Source: Candidatus Binataceae bacterium
GTDB taxonomy: Bacteria; Desulfobacterota; Binatia; Binatales; Binataceae
Assembly: GCA_035308025.1 (NCBI GenBank)
Contig: DATGHL010000045.1
Span: forward strand, 56,014 to 120,013
Length of the DNA: 64,000 nt
Direction of reading: 5' to 3'
A program made the position numbers and the translations under genes. Below, one piece after another: positions 8,805 to 50,263 of the stretch; position 1 is the stretch's first letter, and every line of letters starts with the position of its first letter. The notes under the pieces were generated by a model. It was not told the origin of the DNA. It ran no database searches and was given only the letters and a program-made list of their open reading frames with translations.

Positions 8805-9521
8805 GTGCATTGGAGTGAGATCTCCGCTAATCCAAATCTACCTGAGGTCTTGAGGCTTCGGGCCTCTCTCTTGAGGAAAGCGCGGCGACAACCCGTTGAG
8901 AACCGAATTGCCTACCTCTGTGAAATGGCAAAGAACAAGAATGTTCTGGACGTCGGAGTGGTCAATCACATTGCTGAGAGCGCCGAAGATCCCGATTGGT
9001 TGCATGGGCGGCTTTTGGCGGTGGCAAGTCGTTGCTTCGGCGTTGATATCGCCGCGGAAGGCATTCGCAAGCTGCTCGAGAAGGGATACAACGTCGCGCT
9101 TTGCGACATCACGTCGGAGCAGGGCGAGAACATCACGGATAGATTCGACTTAATAATCTGCGGCGAGTTGATCGAGCACCTCGGGAATCCCAGCCGGCTT
9201 TTTGACGCGGCGCGTCGGCTGCTGGTACCTGGGGGCAGTTTGGTCCTGACGACGCCTAATCCATTTTATTTGGGGCGCATATTCCGGCACTTGTTCAACG
9301 CGTCGTGCGAAAATGTAGACCATGTGACGATGCTGTTTGCCTCAGGCGTTGCCGAGCTCGCGGATCGCGCGGGCCTTGAACTGAAGAGCTATCGCGGAAT
9401 CTACCCGGAGCCCGTAACTAAGAAAAGAAAGCTATTTCTGCCGGTGAAATGGATGGTGCAGGCTACGACGAATAATGAGGCGGCGTGCGAATCAATCGTC
9501 TACGAGTGCATTCGAGTATGA
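8805..9521 (+). CDS. class I SAM-dependent methyltransferase
   Basis: 238 aa; GTG after AAGGAG. Motif I variant VLDVGVVNH, acidic loop FGVDI, post-I DLIICGELIEHL, and LVPGGSLVLTTPN. Visibly lower G/C than flanking genes. Confidence 0.65.
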   Translation: MHWSEISANPNLPEVLRLRASLLRKARRQPVENRIAYLCEMAKNKNVLDVGVVNHIAESAEDPDWLHGRLLAVASRCFGVDIAAEGIRKLLEKGYNVALCDITSEQGENITDRFDLIICGELIEHLGNPSRLFDAARRLLVPGGSLVLTTPNPFYLGRIFRHLFNASCENVDHVTMLFASGVAELADRAGLELKSYRGIYPEPVTKKRKLFLPVKWMVQATTNNEAACESIVYECIRV

Positions 9522-9848
9522 CCGCGCAGACGCAGCTTGGTTTTTCTAGATCATTTATCGATCCGAACGCAAAATAATCTCGCTTGGACGGAAGTCCTCT
9601 CCAGATTCGGGCTCGGCTGGCTCACGATTCGACCTCCCTGGACGCTCGGATAATCATTCGTTTGAGTCGGCTGGAAAAGCAATGGCCGCACGGACGTGTG
9701 GCGTTGATCGGCGTCCGCGCGGCGGCCGCGATGCTCCCTGACGACGTGGACAAGGCCTAGGACAAACACGAGCTCGATCGCTGCGGCGAGCGCAAGACCC
9801 CACCTCCCTGTCCTCGTCGCGCTCAAGCCCGGGCGCGCTATCGGGTAT

Positions 9849-11006
9849 ATGACAGCAATGCGCAGGACGACAATTTCCGCGGAAAAAATCCTCGCACGGG
9901 TACTAGCAATCGGTTCAAACCCCGGCGCCGCCTCAGCCTCGATTCGCGTCGAGGGCGCAACGATCAGCGGTTTACTCGACCTCTCAGGTCTGACGATTGC
10001 CGGAACGCTGATGTTCGTCGATTGCGTCTTCGAGGAACAGCTCAGGATGCGCAGCACATCGCTTCAAGCCATTTTCTTGGGCGGTTGCGAGCTTTCGGGA
10101 CTGGAGGGCGAAGAGCTGCGCGTCGAGCAAGATCTTCAACTCTGCGAGGGCTCGCGCGTTGCTCAGCCGATCAACCTGGAGCGCGCGACGATCAGCGAAA
10201 GTCTGTCGTTCTCAGGCGCGAGTCTAGGTCCAGTGGATGGCGCGGCGCTAATAGCCAACGATATGACAATCGGTGGCCATCTGCTGCTGAGCAATGATTT
10301 CCTCGCCGCCGGCGCAGTGAGTATGCGCCGGATGCATATTGGCGGGGCGCTCTATTGTGCGCGAGGGAAGTTCATGAATCCCCGCGGTACGGCGCTCGTC
10401 CTCGACGACGCGCAGATCGAGGGCAACGTATTATTGAGTCAGGGATTCAAAGCCCGCGGCGAGGTGAGTCTCCTGCGCGCGCGGATGGGCGGTTTTCTGT
10501 ACTGCGCGCACGGCGCCTTCGAGAATCCCGGCGCGACCGCACTCGCCGCCGATAACGTTGTGATTGGGGGCCGCGCTTTTCTCGGTGAATGGTTTAACGC
10601 GAAAGGCGCGGTACTCCTCCGCGATGCGTCTATCGGGGGCGATCTCTACTGCGTCGGCGGCATCTGCCAGAATCCGGGCGGCATCGCACTTGACGCGGAA
10701 CGCATCCGCGTCGGCGGCTCAGTGCGGATGCATACGCGGTTCCTTGCACAAGGGGCGGTGCGGCTTGCCGGCGCGACGATTGGCGGGACGCTCAACTGTA
10801 CCGGTGGTCAATTCGAGAATCGTGGCGGCGTCGCGTTGACGGCCGAAGGTGCGACAGTCGGCGGTGACGTTGTGCTCGGCAGCGGCTTTCGCGCCGAAAG
10901 CTCGGTATGTTTCGATCGCGCGACGATCGGCGGCGTCCTCGACGTCAAAGACGCCCGCTGCGACGGCGTTTCGATGAAAGGTTTGCGGTTTATTGAGGCG
11001 ATCTAA
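9849..11006 (+). CDS. beta-helix-type repeat protein (about 24-residue coils, Cys ladder), function unknown
   Basis: 385 aa. Four and a half tandem repeats of about 48 aa, e.g. HIGGALYCARGKFMNPRGTALVLDDAQIEGNVLLSQGFKARGEVSLLRAR, MGGFLYCAHGAFENPGATALAADNVVIGGRAFLGEWFNAKGAVLLRDAS, IGGDLYCVGGICQNPGGIALDAERIRVGGSVRMHTRFLAQGAVRLAGAT, IGGTLNCTGGQFENRGGVALTAEGATVGGDVVLGSGFRAESSVCFDRAT. No signal peptide or TM segment. Confidence 0.7.
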   Translation: MTAMRRTTISAEKILARVLAIGSNPGAASASIRVEGATISGLLDLSGLTIAGTLMFVDCVFEEQLRMRSTSLQAIFLGGCELSGLEGEELRVEQDLQLCEGSRVAQPINLERATISESLSFSGASLGPVDGAALIANDMTIGGHLLLSNDFLAAGAVSMRRMHIGGALYCARGKFMNPRGTALVLDDAQIEGNVLLSQGFKARGEVSLLRARMGGFLYCAHGAFENPGATALAADNVVIGGRAFLGEWFNAKGAVLLRDASIGGDLYCVGGICQNPGGIALDAERIRVGGSVRMHTRFLAQGAVRLAGATIGGTLNCTGGQFENRGGVALTAEGATVGGDVVLGSGFRAESSVCFDRATIGGVLDVKDARCDGVSMKGLRFIEAI

Positions 11007-22641: not shown

Positions 22642-23997
22642 TTAACGCATGATCATCTGAAGACCTGACGGACTGCCATACTTGACGCCGTCGAGGTATT
22701 CCTTGGGCGCGTTGATGCCGAGATAAGGCTTGATCTTCTTGTCATTGCCAAATCCCGACCAGATGGTCTGATGGCCATTCTGGAAATCCATCGCCATCGA
22801 GGAAACGCCGTCCCAGCTATGACCAAGCCCGGGTACGTTGTCCGACGCGTCGTTGTAATACGCAATTGACTTCCACAGCTTGTGGTTCGAGTCGAACAGA
22901 TCAACCCAGTTGCCATTCCAGTGCTCGCGATCCGCGTAGAGGATGCGGCTCGAATAGCAGTAGCCCGCCGCTTCGCTTGGTATGCGGGTCACGTCAGCAA
23001 TCGCATGCGGACGCTGTTCCCACGCGCCCCAACTCGGCTTCGGGAAGCCCAGCGGCATCAGGTAGCCGTCAGGGAAGATCGCGCCATCCTGATTGAAGTG
23101 CGCCAGCGTCAGCAGCTTGCGGTCGCCGAGGAAGTTACCGGTATAGATCGAGGTGCTGCCGTTGAAGCCATTGGTCTTCGCATCATCGTAAGTCCAGTCA
23201 AAGCCGAACACCGGCGAGCAGCGCGCGGTGCTGGCCAAGCGCAGTGAACGGCGCAGCGCCGGCACGAACACGTAGGTGTCCGGGAAGGGAGCCTTTTCCT
23301 GATCGGTGTAGAACAGGTTGAGCGACGCCGTGTAACGCGCCTGTTCCGGTGATTCTTCCATCAGCCACTCGGTGTACCAGGTGCCCGGGGCATAGTTCAG
23401 AGTCGTCGGAAAGTTCGGGTCAGTAATGTAGTCGCTCCAGCGATAGACCACGTCAAGCTTGGTCTGATTAACGTTGCCGTAACGATCCAGCGCCCACACC
23501 GAGCCATAATTGTCCCCGACTGCATTCACGTAAACCGCCGGCTGGTAGGCCCAGAAGGTGTTGGCGAGGATTTTCCAGCCCTTGTTGGGCTCCTGCGGAT
23601 TCGGAAAGGGCGTTCCGCCGTGATAGTTATGCATCACGTAATGGCCATTGGGTAGGACTTCTACCGTAGTCTGCGCGCCATACTTTTCGGTCGCATCCAG
23701 CCAGCTCTTCGGCAAGGCGTTATACTTCGCCGCTGCGACATCGATCTCAGCTCCGGGAGGCATTTTCCAGAAATACTTGCCCTCCCACAGCTTATCCATG
23801 CCGAGTGGCATCGCGTACTGGAACTGCTGCCAGTTGGCGGCGGTGATCTTCGTGCCGATCGGAACGTCCGCCTGAGTCGCCGATCCCTTCAGCCATGCAT
23901 CAATTTCACTGCGGTCGGTCGATTGCGACCAGCCCAGCGAGGGCAATAGGGCAATAACCAGCCCGATTGCCATTAAGCGGCCTAAACACTTCATCAT
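22642..23997 (-). CDS. secreted DUF1329-like protein (outer-membrane lipoprotein-sorting-like; moderate call)
   Basis: I prefer ATG 23997 (MMKCLGRLMAIGLVIALLPSLGWSQS, a signal peptide). About 451 aa and Trp/Tyr-rich; motifs YHGGTPFPNPQEPNKGWK and YADREHWNGNW. Confidence 0.5.
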   Translation of the reverse strand: MMKCLGRLMAIGLVIALLPSLGWSQSTDRSEIDAWLKGSATQADVPIGTKITAANWQQFQYAMPLGMDKLWEGKYFWKMPPGAEIDVAAAKYNALPKSWLDATEKYGAQTTVEVLPNGHYVMHNYHGGTPFPNPQEPNKGWKILANTFWAYQPAVYVNAVGDNYGSVWALDRYGNVNQTKLDVVYRWSDYITDPNFPTTLNYAPGTWYTEWLMEESPEQARYTASLNLFYTDQEKAPFPDTYVFVPALRRSLRLASTARCSPVFGFDWTYDDAKTNGFNGSTSIYTGNFLGDRKLLTLAHFNQDGAIFPDGYLMPLGFPKPSWGAWEQRPHAIADVTRIPSEAAGYCYSSRILYADREHWNGNWVDLFDSNHKLWKSIAYYNDASDNVPGLGHSWDGVSSMAMDFQNGHQTIWSGFGNDKKIKPYLGINAPKEYLDGVKYGSPSGLQMIMR

Positions 23998-24294
23998 ATG
24001 TCTCCCCTGTTCGGTTGAGGCCCTTGCCGAACTCTCGCGAGGTCGCGGCAAGGCAGTTTTCAGTCCCCACGAGCGCACTTTGGAGCAAGATCGGCTTTGA
24101 GGCCGCTCCGGAGGAATTTATACGGATAAAAAAAATCAACTGTCAATATCGACTTTTTCTCCTTTCGATGCCCACGCGAACCCTCCGACAATCGCATGAA
24201 CGTCGGATTAGCCTATGATCCCCTAACTCGCTGACATACGTATCGGTTCCCAGGCGTGAGAGGTAGGAAATCTTGGGGTGTCCGTCCGGGCGCG

Positions 24295-25690
24295 CTAGAA
24301 CAGTGGCAGCCTGATACCGGCCGTGATCAGTGCGCCGCTCGCGACCCCGGTCAACGCTTCGCCCGCGATCATGCCGGCCGCAATCAGAAGCCCCGGGCCC
24401 GCCTGTGCGTCGCGCTGCCGACGGAAGAGCAGCCCCCCAAGCGCACCGGCGAGAATTGTCACTCCGAGTCCGAAGGGCAGGTACAGCCCGATCGCCACCG
24501 GCATCACCGGCGTGCGCCAGCCATAGCCGCCTCGATCCAAGGCGCGATCGCTGATCAGGAGCATGGTCGCGAGCGCCGCGCCCACCGCGATCGTGCCCCA
24601 CGGCAGACCGCCGAAGAAGACGCCGTCAGCCACCTTGGCCATCAGGAAAGCCTGGGGTGCGGAGAGTGCGTGCGCGCCGGCGGCCGGCGTTCCGGCGATG
24701 CCGTAGGCGCGGATCAGCAGATTCAGAATCGGCGCCATCACGAAGGCCGAGACGGCGGCGCCGCTGAGCACCGCGATTTCGAGCGCGCGCGGCGTCGCGC
24801 GCAAATGAAACCCGGTGGCGAGATCGTGCAGGGAGTCGCCGGCCATCGCGGCCGCGACACAAACCACCGCGCCGGAGAGGATCGCGAGGCGCGGCCCGAG
24901 CGCGGCGCTCACGCCGCCCAATTTGAGCATCAGGGCGATCGCCAGCAGCACTATAATCGTCACGCCCGAGACCGGATTGTTCGAGGCTCCGACCACGCCG
25001 GTCAGATAGCCGGCGACGGCTGACGCAAAAAATCCGATCAGCACGAGCAGCAGCGCGAGCGCCACGCTGAGCCCGAGGCTGCCGCTCAAACGGTAAATGA
25101 TGACGGTGATCGCCGGCAGGCAGAGCGCGACCGCGATCGCGATGACCCGCGGCGGCAGGTCGAGGGCCTCGCGCGGGACGCGCGCCGCGGCGTCGCCTGC
25201 GCGCATCAGGCGCGAACTCTCCGCGATCCCGCCCGTGATGGAGCGGCGCAAGCGCCACAAGGTTGCCGCCCCGCCGACCACATCGCGCCGACGCCGAGAT
25301 AGCGCGTCTGTTCGTTCCAGATTTTTTGCGCGGCGGCGGCCGCCGCGAGTCCGCGCAATTCGGGATGAGTCGCGCGGGGAAGGTGAAGATCGCGCCTGCA
25401 GCGACTGCCTCGCCCGCGGAGGCGACGGTCTGGACGACGTTGTTCTCGAGCATAGTCGCGCGTCCGAGAAGGCGCAGCAGCGCCATCGAGATGACGGCTG
25501 CCGGAATGCTCGCTGAGACCGTCATGCCGGCGTAAAGCCCGAGATAGGCATTGGCCGCGCCGAGGATTAACGCGAGGATCGCGCCGAGAATGAAGGCGCG
25601 AACCGTCAGCTCGCGCTGCGCAAGCAGAGACCGTGCAGCGGGTCTAGGCGCAGGCTCGGACACGTCGCGACTATATCCGAATCGCCGCAA
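24295..25690 (-). pseudogene. OPT-family oligopeptide transporter, disrupted by two frameshifts
   Basis: The N-terminal frame (ELTVRAFILGAILALILGAANAYLGLYAGMTVSASIPAAVISMALL...AIFTFPA) is lost at about 25371. The G/C-rich middle frame reads THPELRGLAAAAAAQKIWNEQTRYLGVGAMW. A second shift at about 25279 leads into the tracked C-terminal ORF (VGGAATLWRL...NNPVSGVTIIVLL...). Confidence 0.6.
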
Positions 25691-25732
25691 GCGTGACGCG
25701 CTCGCCTGCGGCCCCAGAATCGTGTGCAGAAA

Positions 25733-26242
25733 CTACGAGGCGTGGCCCTCGCTGCCGCTCACGAGCGTGGTCGGCTGGCCCGCCTGCTTCCACCCCTTGA
25801 TACCGTCGGCCATCACACTGACGTTTTCGTAGCCGGCTTTGACCGCCCGCCGGGCGGCCTCATGCGACGCCGTTCAAAGAGTGTTCGCGCAATAGAAGAC
25901 CAGCTTCGCCTTTTTGTCTTGCGGCAGTACGGCAAGGTCGTATTTGTTGTCGGAACTCAGCAGGGTTGCGGCCGGAATCACCCCATACTCTGCGCGCGTG
26001 GAGGCGCCGTTAGCGTCATAGATGTGCACCGGCGACTTGGTATCGTTCATCATCGCCTTCAAATCGGCGACGTGGATAATCGAGAAGGTTTCGAGCGTCG
26101 GATCGTTGTCTTCATGACCCAGCAGTTGCGAGAGATCGAACGCGCGCGCCGCCGGCGCGTAGTAACCGGCCGCCAGAATCGTGAGCGCGAAGGGCGCCGC
26201 CACCGTGAGTACACGGGCGAGTCCTCGTCTGATGATGCGCAT
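25733..26242 (-). CDS. exported rhodanese-domain sulfurtransferase with in-frame UGA (candidate selenocysteine) in the active-site loop
   Basis: ATG 26242 lies 9 nt after GGGAGG, giving the signal-like MRIIRRGLARVLTVAAPFALTILAAGYYAPAARA. The tracked ORF ends at TGA 25876-25874 after LVFYCANTL. The same frame continues as TASHEAARRAVKAGYENVSVMADGIKGWKQAGQPTTLVSGSEGHAS to TAG 25735-25733, which completes the rhodanese fold. Confidence 0.65.
25841..25859 (-). promoter_or_regulatory. SECIS-like hairpin downstream of the rhodanese UGA
   Basis: RNA GGCCGCCC-GGC-GGGCGGUC; 8 bp including one G-U. The stem starts at +15 after UGA and the loop sits at +23 to +25. Confidence 0.55.
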
Positions 26243-26448
26243 AAGAGCAGACCTCCCGATCGGAGCTATCACGGGCCGCACCGGCTGCCAAGCTGACTTT
26301 TCTAGCCGCGGGAGTCAGGTGCAGAAGCGCGGGCGTGAGGATTTGAGCAAAGCTGCCGAGCATGGCAGAGTTACGGGCGCAGCAGCTTTCCGTCTCGCGA
26401 CAAAAGGCGGAAGTTCCAGGCAAGCCATAAGGTTAGGACGCATGGAGC

Positions 26449-49714: not shown

Positions 49715-50263
49715 ATGGCCCAAGTCAGTCTGATCCCGTTTCCGCAGGTTGCTCCCGAACTTCAGGAGATCATGAGGACTTACGACAAGGAATATGCGGG
49801 TTCGGAATTTGTCCGTGCATTCGCGCATGCCCCAGAGGTCTTCAAGTCCTTCGCAAGCTACTACTTTCCGCTCATCTTCGAGACCCGCGGTAGTCTCGAT
49901 ATGCGGTTGACCGAGATGGTGCGGCTCAAGGTGGCGGAGAAGAACGACTGCGCGCTTTGAATGAACGGGCGTGTCGCCTTGGCAAGGCGACAAGGGCTGA
50001 CCGAAGAACAAATCGCGGAGTTGCGTAATTTTCGCGAGAGCAAGATTCTGACCGCGCCGGAGAAGGCCGCGGTCTGGTACGCGGAAGTGCTCGCTGGCGA
50101 TCACACACAGGCATCCGAAGCGTTATTTGATGAATTGCGCCGACATTTCACGGAGACCGAGATTATCGACCTGGGATTTCGCATCACCGCGTTCGTTGGG
50201 TATGGGCGCCTGATCCGCGCGCTCGGACTGGAACGGGGAGGAGTCTGCCCGCTGCCGGGTTGA
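49715..50263 (+). CDS. AhpD/carboxymuconolactone-decarboxylase-like selenoprotein (CxxU)
   Basis: ATG 49715 after GGGAGGAAAGGAAG. 81 codons lead to KVAEKNDCAL, then TGA 49958-49960. The tracked ORF 49961-50263 follows directly in the same frame (MNGRVALARRQGLTEEQIAELRNF...). The joined 182-residue product has the CMD-domain layout, with the TGA at the second Cys of CxxC. Confidence 0.75.
49973..49991 (+). promoter_or_regulatory. SECIS-like hairpin downstream of the AhpD-like UGA
   Basis: RNA GUCGCCUU-GGC-AAGGCGAC; a perfect 8-bp stem starting at +13 after UGA, with the loop at +21 to +23. Confidence 0.65.

Follow-up and report, generated by a model that had tools for sequence, protein, structure and literature searches.

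We describe here a gene in the genome of an uncultured soil bacterium, Candidatus Binataceae (assembly GCA_035308025.1), located within the 64,000-nucleotide (nt) stretch of contig DATGHL010000045.1 (positions 56,014 to 120,013) that was analyzed as a whole and is further called the window. The gene codes for a small protein with a rhodanese domain and contains an in-frame TGA triplet as its codon 123. We propose with high confidence that it is a genuine, translated selenoprotein gene of the family Binataceae (phylum Binatota), functional and with UGA-123 of its mRNA read as selenocysteine (Sec). This proposal is supported by homologues with cysteine (Cys) at the same column, by purifying selection beyond the UGA and by a hairpin whose nucleotides are conserved only together with the UGA.

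Reading frame around the UGA codon

The minus-strand gene (25733-26242) starts with ATG at 26242-26240 and ends with TAG at 25735-25733, the TGA occupying positions 25876-25874. If the TGA is read through, 169 codons and a stop give a protein of 169 residues. The open reading frame (ORF) preceding the TGA runs from MRIIRRGLARV to KLVFYCANTL, and the same frame continues as TASHEAARRAVKAGYENVSVMADGIKGWKQAGQPTTLVSGSEGHAS up to the TAG, with zero frameshift. With U set to C, the Pfam model PF00581 (Rhodanese) matches residues 59-154, that is across the TGA, with E-value of 5.5e-10 and 40 bits, exceeding the gathering cut-off of 22.2. The initial annotation of this DNA had proposed that the TGA interrupts a rhodanese fold whose frame continues without frameshift; both the translation and the Pfam match confirm this. 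It had also noted a G/C-rich third-codon bias that persists beyond the TGA, and indeed the G+C content of third codon positions (GC3) is 0.74 before and 0.89 after it, host G+C being 62%. The GGGAGG ribosome-binding site reported in front of the gene is present, too (Table 1).

When C was put in place of U, a protein search retrieved 228 relatives, which fall into two length classes. Proteins of the first class, about 160 residues long and named "rhodanese-related sulfurtransferases", read FYCANT[LQH]-C-[TMI]ASHEAARRAVKAGY; their Cys stands exactly at the TGA column (motif FYCANT[LQH]C[TMI]ASHEAARRA in full-length Cys homologues) and they share the C-terminus of the window protein. The initial annotation had named this search as a check on its reading, and the outcome that would speak against it was not seen. 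The second class consists of "hypothetical proteins" (NCBI names) of 114-122 residues without Pfam match. All 24 short homologues that were read terminate at ...FYC[AT][ND][TSW][LH], one residue ahead of the Cys/TGA column. Databases currently miscall our gene and at least two dozen homologues (about 30 among the best 120 clusters) as hypothetical proteins of this length.

The corresponding DNA was compared between the window and 30 related loci (L001-L030), with one genome per species and tandem paralogues counted. The loci belong to Candidatus Binataceae or to metagenome-assembled genomes (MAGs) labelled as delta- or proteobacterium, except for a short contig from a Stellaceae bin (L028, JBKQTR010000237.1). 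The rhodanese N-terminus and the upstream ORF coordinates on this contig are the same as in Binataceae locus L002, and the contig probably comes from Binataceae and was mis-binned. At the aligned codon, 20 copies (the window and 19 copies from 18 other genomes) have TGA and 15 have TGC or TGT, and none of these 35 copies from the window and 30 genomes has TAA or TAG at the column. In every TGA copy the frame runs on into xASHEAARRA..AGY..V.VM.DGI.GW..AG.P.

We exclude both sequencing error and a private nonsense mutation, because either TGA or TGC/TGT recurs across 30 other species-level genomes with no other stop at this place. Suspicion of an error, TGA standing for TGC or TGT, could be fed by the origin of the window from a metagenome assembly and by frameshifts in the neighbouring OPT-family transporter gene of several related MAGs. 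Against it stand the identical 122-residue call in assemblies made independently (contigs of 117 kb from JGI, of Logan run SRR5579863 and of 255 kb), the TGA in the 19 other copies, which speaks against the refuting condition of the initial annotation that reads would have TGC or TGT here, and the Sec-specific hairpin described below, which co-varies with the TGA. The probability left for an error is negligible.

Downstream of the UGA, Sec forms differ at a proportion of 0.61 of synonymous (pS) and 0.18 of nonsynonymous sites (pN), giving dN/dS of 0.16. The region is therefore translated, since this ratio is indistinguishable from that of Cys forms (0.154). This bears directly on another explanation, namely true termination at the TGA, in which case the gene would be a pseudogene or code for a truncated protein of 122 residues, with the downstream frame untranslated. 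Such a reading would agree with the calls of 114-122 residues made by gene callers, with the role of TGA as a normal stop in this genome and with the clearly disrupted OPT gene adjoining in the window. Yet it leaves unexplained why the same column holds TGA in 20 copies across species and TAA or TAG in none, why selection downstream equals that on Cys forms, and why the hairpin is conserved in TGA forms only. A product of 122 residues would moreover, judged from the structural model, end before the helix and the final strands of the rhodanese domain. We consider a true stop extremely improbable.

SECIS-like hairpin and proposed decoding of selenocysteine

Bacterial selenocysteine insertion sequences (SECIS) of the type known from Escherichia coli fdhF, as well as the criteria of bSECISearch, require a hairpin within the coding region, placed at a short fixed distance past the UGA and carrying G in its apical loop. 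The initial annotation had pointed to an 8-bp GC hairpin 15 nt downstream of the TGA. Such a hairpin, GGCCGCCC-GGC-GGGCGGUC, is found there: its stem of 8 bp begins, past a spacer of 14 nt, with the 15th nucleotide from the UGA, and its energy is -15.8 kcal/mol. It shares with the fdhF SECIS the location in the coding sequence shortly past the UGA and the G-containing loop. It differs in that the loop is 3 nt long (5 nt if the closing pair opens) and not GGUC, and in having no obvious bulged U. We propose that this hairpin would serve as a bacterial SECIS for SelB and Sec-tRNA(Sec), the dependence on SelB being presumed, and that it is encoded in synonymous positions of the peptide A-A-R-R-A.

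This peptide (codons +6 to +10 from the UGA) is invariant in Sec and Cys forms alike, which makes possible a controlled test of constraint at the nucleotide level. Sec forms spell it almost always as GCC GCC CGG CGG GCG, whereas Cys forms mix codons. With nucleotide entropy summed over the three positions of each codon, codons +6 to +10 have 0.67, 0, 0.54, 0 and 0 bits in Sec forms, against 0.92, 1.33, 2.11, 1.28 and 0.41 bits in Cys forms; synonymous sites in the neighbourhood vary equally in both groups. Pairwise pS at the five hairpin codons is correspondingly 0.064 among Sec and 0.468 among Cys forms, with 0.61 elsewhere downstream in both. The eight stem pairs are formed in 142 of 160 cells in Sec forms and in 86 of 120 cells in Cys forms. 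The hairpins of Sec forms are also more stable, with a mean energy of -12.5 kcal/mol versus -6.4 kcal/mol for Cys forms (p = 2e-5 by the Mann-Whitney test, with no phylogenetic correction). The apical loop of all 20 Sec forms is GGC (17) or GUC (3), while GCC is the commonest loop of Cys forms; in L021 the hairpin has a shifted register and a bulged C. Taken from nucleotide comparison, there is selection on the RNA which is present only with the UGA codon and acts at the distance typical for bacterial SECIS.

A second gene of the same design was found when the window was scanned for in-frame TGAs with coding-like flanks under a relaxed GC3 filter. The scan gave seven candidates, five of which (all except the rhodanese and the gene described now) have no recognisable motif at the TGA. 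The remaining candidate codes for an AhpD/CMD-like protein that reads ...VAEKNDCAL-U-MNGRVALARRQG, with NDCAL-U as a CxxU motif. It exceeds the cut-offs of Pfam CMD and TIGR00778, and several NCBIfam models named "(seleno)protein" match it weakly. At the motif its full-length homologues read C-R-L-C. For dozens of others, the sole call is an ORF of about 100 residues starting just past the TGA, that of the window being P0131. At the DNA level the TGA is kept in orthologues L035 (on a 4.6-Mb contig) and L036 (a Binataceae MAG). The hairpin of this gene has 9 bp, starts at the 12th nucleotide past the UGA and carries a GGC loop; its stem shows compensatory substitutions with the loop kept (GUCGCCUU/AAGGCGAC, GUUGCUUU/AAAGCAAC and UUUGCCUU/AAGGCAA). 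In one full-length homologue, P0126, the Sec/Cys column is occupied by Trp (NDCFLW), which a change of TGA to TGG would produce.

AhpD-like proteins with CxxU motif are a recognised class of selenoproteins (PMC13188914). Two unrelated thiol-redox genes sharing the same arrangement of UGA, spacer, hairpin and GGC loop provide good indirect evidence for a working Sec system in this organism. Together they indicate the use of selenocysteine in Binataceae (candidate phylum Binatota).

The nucleotide directly 5' of the UGA (position 25877) is T in 19 of 20 Sec forms of the rhodanese gene (preceding codons CTT, CAT, CGT and TAT, with one CAC), and in just 3 of 15 Cys forms. In the CMD-like gene the context is CTT-TGA-A in the window and L035 and CTC-TGA-C in L036. 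This T may reflect a context requirement for Sec insertion or a selection against RF2.

Several observations weigh against the proposed selenoprotein, its decoding or its function. Neither the 64 kb of the window nor the related loci (about 560 kb) contain selA, selB, selD or tRNA-Sec. The tRNAs detected by ARAGORN are limited to tRNA-Met and tRNA-Leu of the related loci, the window having none. Two matches obtained with E. coli SelA, SelB and SelD (tblastn against the window and 30 loci) were identified as IF-2 (L019) and ThiL (L020). The hairpin of the window, folded as a single sequence, is unexceptional for its G+C content (z = -0.40 for 60 nt; local 27-nt z = -2.7); a lone hairpin being unremarkable in such G+C-rich context, its significance had to come from comparative data. 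As the stem is near-invariant, it offers little covariation, and the support for RNA structure therefore consists of the contrast between Sec and Cys forms, with statistics not phylogenetically corrected, and not of compensatory changes. Rfam gave no match, either for the whole window at gathering thresholds or for positions 25700-25950 at E<=10, although it may hold no usable model of bacterial SECIS. The OPT gene, the proposed partner, is disrupted in the window, so that the locus may be decaying or the link with OPT may be dispensable.

The lack of Sec machinery in the window and the related loci also leaves room for reading of the UGA as another amino acid, be it near-cognate insertion of Trp or Cys stimulated by the hairpin or a lineage-specific reassignment, and the Trp of P0126 at the corresponding column of the CMD-like protein would fit it. 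Reassignment is contradicted by the use of TGA as a terminator: 16 of 33 long ORFs with high GC3 in the window end with it, more than with any other stop. Furthermore, rhodanese forms without TGA have Cys and never Trp at the column, the position of the hairpin and its G-containing loop fit a bacterial SECIS, and the same arrangement occurs in two unrelated thiol-redox families of the window, one of them belonging to the recognised AhpD-like CxxU class (PMC13188914). Readthrough with an amino acid other than Sec is thus very unlikely, and insertion of Sec is the reading that we retain.

Active-site loop, probable export and proposed chemistry

The fold was examined on an AlphaFold (AF2) model of Cys homologue P0002, which is 72% identical to the window protein, built on an alignment of 52 sequences. 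Confidence (pLDDT) is >90 in the core of the domain, and the chain before residue 42 is disordered. Strand 105-109, followed by C110 (LVFYC), leads into a loop formed by C110-T116 and further to helix 117-127. Essentially all fold matches listed from PDB have rhodanese fold: RPA3614, 6mxv, BH2092, Alr3790, GlpE, YgaP and Sud. The protein can be counted among them, as its catalytic Cys lies in the loop between strand and helix and falls, in alignment, on the active-site residue of YgaP and 6mxv. Residues C110, A111, C115, S118 and H119 (P0002 numbering) belong to those invariant in the family, and N112 is present in at least 90% of its members.

In the alignment with solved rhodaneses, Cys118 of the window protein falls on the catalytic Cys and U123 on the Arg of CGGGFRS and CQAGKRT. 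The basic residue at position +5 that is typical for thiosulfate sulfurtransferases, CxxGxR(S/T), is thus missing, its column being filled by U or Cys. The initial annotation had placed the UGA inside the catalytic loop C-A-N-T-L-U. The location in the loop is borne out, yet the Sec occupies the column of the +5 Arg with the catalytic Cys retained, and so it does not replace the nucleophile. Judged by these alignments, the protein is a member of the rhodanese fold with an atypical active site, in which Sec stands in place of the canonical +5 Arg.

A signal-like peptide with two arginines had been noted at the N-terminus. The arginine pair is present in the window protein, but aligned homologues show RK, QR, SR, TR and similar pairs instead. 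Export by the twin-arginine translocation (Tat) pathway was considered and rejected since the pair, and with it a twin-arginine motif (S/T-R-R-x-F-L-K), is not conserved. Aligned homologues share a basic n-region, a hydrophobic core and an AxA site, and residues 1-41 are disordered in the AF2 model of P0002. The protein is probably exported by means of a signal peptide of the general secretion (Sec) type, cleaved between ARA and FD. The predicted product would consist of about 135 mature residues forming a single rhodanese domain.

In 21 of the 30 related loci, a co-directional gene for an OPT-family transporter (about 610 codons; TIGR00733 with E-value of 3.5e-154 in L012) comes next after the rhodanese gene, mostly at a distance of about 50-150 nt. 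As all the loci come from one family, this synteny may partly be a matter of inheritance. The OPT gene of the window has a clean internal deletion of 433 nt in comparison with L003 and L004 (junction near 25373/25374) and a change of frame, and is either a pseudogene or a product of assembly collapse. In L001, the closest relative, the OPT gene is absent downstream. The rhodanese gene is thus retained without its usual neighbour in both genomes. Six loci of one clade (L018, L020, L021, L023, L024 and L026) have a gene for a Fur/PerR-family regulator (PF01475; the best NCBIfam match is PerR, below cut-off) after the OPT gene, about 2.3-3.0 kb downstream of the rhodanese start, which hints at metal- or peroxide-responsive control.

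We tentatively propose that the loop C118-A-N-T-L-U123-T, with Cys kept and Sec placed just ahead of the N-terminus of the following helix, works as a Cys/Sec redox pair, a possibility to which we give somewhat less than even chances. Cys118 would take up sulfane sulfur, another chalcogen or an electrophile, and U123 would resolve the resulting adduct through an intraloop selenenylsulfide. The protein would then be a periplasmic, redox-active and reductase-like rhodanese rather than a transferase of the thiosulfate:cyanide type, and the transporter of the co-directional downstream OPT gene may have been its ancestral partner.

An alternative accepts the Sec and assigns to C-x4-U-x3-H the binding of a periplasmic soft metal or metalloid (Cu, Hg, As, Se, Te), possibly exchanged with the OPT transporter. 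OPT/YSL transporters carry metal chelates in other organisms. The invariance of C110, C115 (Cys or Sec), S118 and H119 of P0002, the lack of those basic residues in the loop that bind thiosulfate in classical rhodaneses, the Fur/PerR-family regulator in six loci and the existence of predicted metal-binding selenoproteins (table in PMC13188914) all agree with this alternative. On the other hand, no metal-binding family matches the protein, its first Cys is located exactly at the catalytic position of rhodaneses within a six-residue loop of sulfurtransferase type, and, among the weak family matches, the best one (rhodanese domain of TsoB) points to redox chemistry, because the name of TsoB joins rhodanese to the electron-transfer family DsbD. 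DsbD proteins are thiol-disulfide electron-transfer modules. Metal binding appears rather unlikely but is a serious alternative, and we give the redox pair precedence.

Rhodanese-domain selenoproteins have been known since the first surveys of prokaryotic selenoproteomes (PMC13188914; also PMC9312934, PMC1976440, PMC1088965, PMC2398784), and a review from 2026 lists five forms: UxxS, two forms of UxxG, CxU (NF041203) and UxxxxU of TsoB (NF045694) (PMC13188914). The initial annotation had spoken of a reported but rare family and of an unusual exported C-x4-U form. The family is indeed a reported one; the word "unusual" has to be tempered, since five rhodanese forms including UxxxxU of TsoB are listed.

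TsoB, the "rhodanese form 5" (Haft & Tolstoy 2025 per PMC13188914), is the best NCBIfam match (E-value of 1.3e-12), although its 46.6 bits remain far below the cut-off of 805 and our protein does not belong to it. Profile positions 101-158 match residues 103-160, covering the loop and the following helix. Both proteins have two chalcogens spaced by four residues in a rhodanese domain. TsoB has 572 profile positions including, by its name, a DsbD-like part, in contrast to 169 residues with one rhodanese domain and a signal peptide here. Its first position is Sec, not Cys, and tso genes are found in place of the OPT neighbourhood; this comparison is made at the level of motifs and profile scores.

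The model NF041203 (LYCAU) scores 32.3 bits against a cut-off of 115, and the spacing C-x4-U is not CxU, which leaves our protein outside this family as well. This form 3, together with the UxU variant of Olavius symbionts (PMC1976440), is a stand-alone rhodanese with Sec located downstream in the loop. Catalytic Cys is retained in the NF041203 form, like here, but its Sec is at +2 and ours at +5. Forms 1, 2 and 4 (UxxS and UxxG; Kryukov & Gladyshev 2004 and Sargasso/GOS surveys, per PMC13188914) are PF00581 selenoproteins, too. The UxxG forms, unlike our protein, are compatible with Sec in place of the catalytic Cys, as the canonical loop has CxxG. The local sequence U-T-A-S formally reads UxxS of form 1, and the Sec column of this form, compared by motif only (reference WP_010941598.1), may coincide with ours; no Geobacter-like sequence was present among the homologues listed.

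TIGR03865 (PQQ_CXXCW; E-value of 1.5e-9) also matches this loop and helix weakly, and its 37.9 bits against a cut-off of 128.05 do not allow membership. This family has a two-Cys motif by its name, and it differs in motif spacing and in that the window locus has no PQQ or ABC-transport neighbourhood. Its protein is presumably small, exported and rhodanese-like. Sud, the polysulfide-sulfur transferase, and E. coli PspE are Sec-exported single rhodanese domains that handle periplasmic sulfane sulfur. Our protein shares with them the predicted export and the single domain, and they differ by having a single Cys and no Sec. Sud of Wolinella (PDB 1qxn) is a structural match with TM-score of 0.59 and about 12% sequence identity.

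In the literature searched, we found neither the string CxxxxU nor a paper naming both Binatia and selenocysteine. We regard the probably exported, OPT-linked C-x4-U rhodanese as a new variant, i.e. a previously uncatalogued form of a known class of rhodanese selenoproteins, with Sec at the +5 position of the loop and catalytic Cys retained. It is set apart from TsoB by profile score and by the Cys at the first position, and from the CxU form by the Sec column; an already described form may share its Sec column. For specialists it represents a useful yet unsurprising addition.

Sec and Cys forms and neighbouring genes

On a neighbour-joining tree, which is rough due to short sequences, Sec forms do not separate from Cys forms but are interleaved with them, and Fitch parsimony requires at least nine switches. 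Codons for Ala (GCN) and Arg (CGN) are mutually complementary, and the peptide A-A-R-R-A can thus gain or lose a SECIS by synonymous changes alone. This would plausibly explain the frequent switching between Sec and Cys. In L008 (10340-10400), a Cys form (TGT) has a perfect hairpin with 8 of 8 pairs, GGC loop and energy of -15.0 kcal/mol, which looks like a recent conversion from Sec to Cys or a pre-adapted SECIS.

Two loci contain both forms in tandem. In L014 (9333-9899 and 10001-10489) and L017 (9376-9900 and 10001-10489), a full-length Sec copy with its own signal peptide, reading FYCHNQH-U-MASHEAARRAIKAGY, is located directly upstream of a Cys copy, which is followed by the OPT gene. They may represent a selenium-dependent pair of isoforms. 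L015 was rejected as another intact pair, its Sec copy (9505-9840) being truncated at the 5' end beside a remnant of a tyrosine recombinase (integrase). In L022 (about 9480-9900) and L027 (about 9400-9880), a divergent paralogue with two Cys (VFYCRN[AT]ACKAAD...) and no hairpin stands in tandem upstream of the main copy.

An overall picture that joins these observations is speculative and, in our opinion, rather improbable as a whole. A periplasmic two-chalcogen rhodanese would cycle through Cys-S-Se-Sec and, together with the OPT transporter, move or reduce persulfides of thiol peptides or Se/Te adducts (conjugates of glutathione type) across the inner membrane. Tandem Sec and Cys copies of L014 and L017 would be a selenium-dependent backup, and synonymous changes in A-A-R-R-A would toggle the SECIS, explaining the at least nine conversions. 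The functional impact of our findings is speculative. Their main wider interest is the clean contrast between Sec and Cys and between SECIS switched on and off. Because Sec and Cys forms alternate among close relatives and the SECIS lies wholly in synonymous positions of an invariant peptide, the locus presents a natural experiment, in which sequence requirements of the SECIS and costs and benefits of Sec versus Cys are readable from natural variants.

Positions of the features discussed are given in Table 1.

Table 1. Features of the window described in the text, with their positions, strands and supporting evidence
Feature	Position	Strand	Evidence and remarks
Complete selenoprotein gene (proposed)	25733..26242	-	Translation; Pfam match across TGA; homologues co-linear to the same C-terminus
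Shine-Dalgarno-like GGGAGG	26252..26257	-	Read in sequence; 9 nt 5' of ATG
Predicted Sec-type signal peptide, residues 1-34 (MRIIRRGLARVLTVAAPFALTILAAGYYAPAARA, followed by FD)	26141..26242	-	Alignment; prediction
Rhodanese homology domain, residues 59-154	25781..26068	-	PF00581; AF2 model of P0002; PDB fold matches
TGC codon, Cys118, canonical catalytic Cys of the rhodanese loop	25889..25891	-	Aligns with active-site Cys of 6mxv and YgaP; family-invariant
UGA codon 123, predicted to be read as Sec, loop position +5	25874..25876	-	TGA/TGC/TGT column; aligns with R of CGGGFRS and CQAGKRT
SECIS-like hairpin in E-A-A-R-R-A-V codons	25841..25859	-	Fold; Sec-only nucleotide conservation of codons +6 to +10
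OPT-family transporter remnant	24295..25690	-	OPT profile 1-93 and 318-620 on two frames; tblastn/blastn against intact orthologues
AhpD/CMD-like UGA gene	49715..50263	+	TGA 49958-49960; hairpin 49972-49992 with GGC loop; CxxU

Divergent genes upstream of the rhodanese gene code for a MaoC protein similar to mesaconyl-CoA hydratase and for an acyl-CoA dehydrogenase. On the other side, the OPT remnant is adjoined by a minus-strand gene (22642-24078) for an exported DUF1329 (LolA-like) protein, which has no match in NCBIfam.

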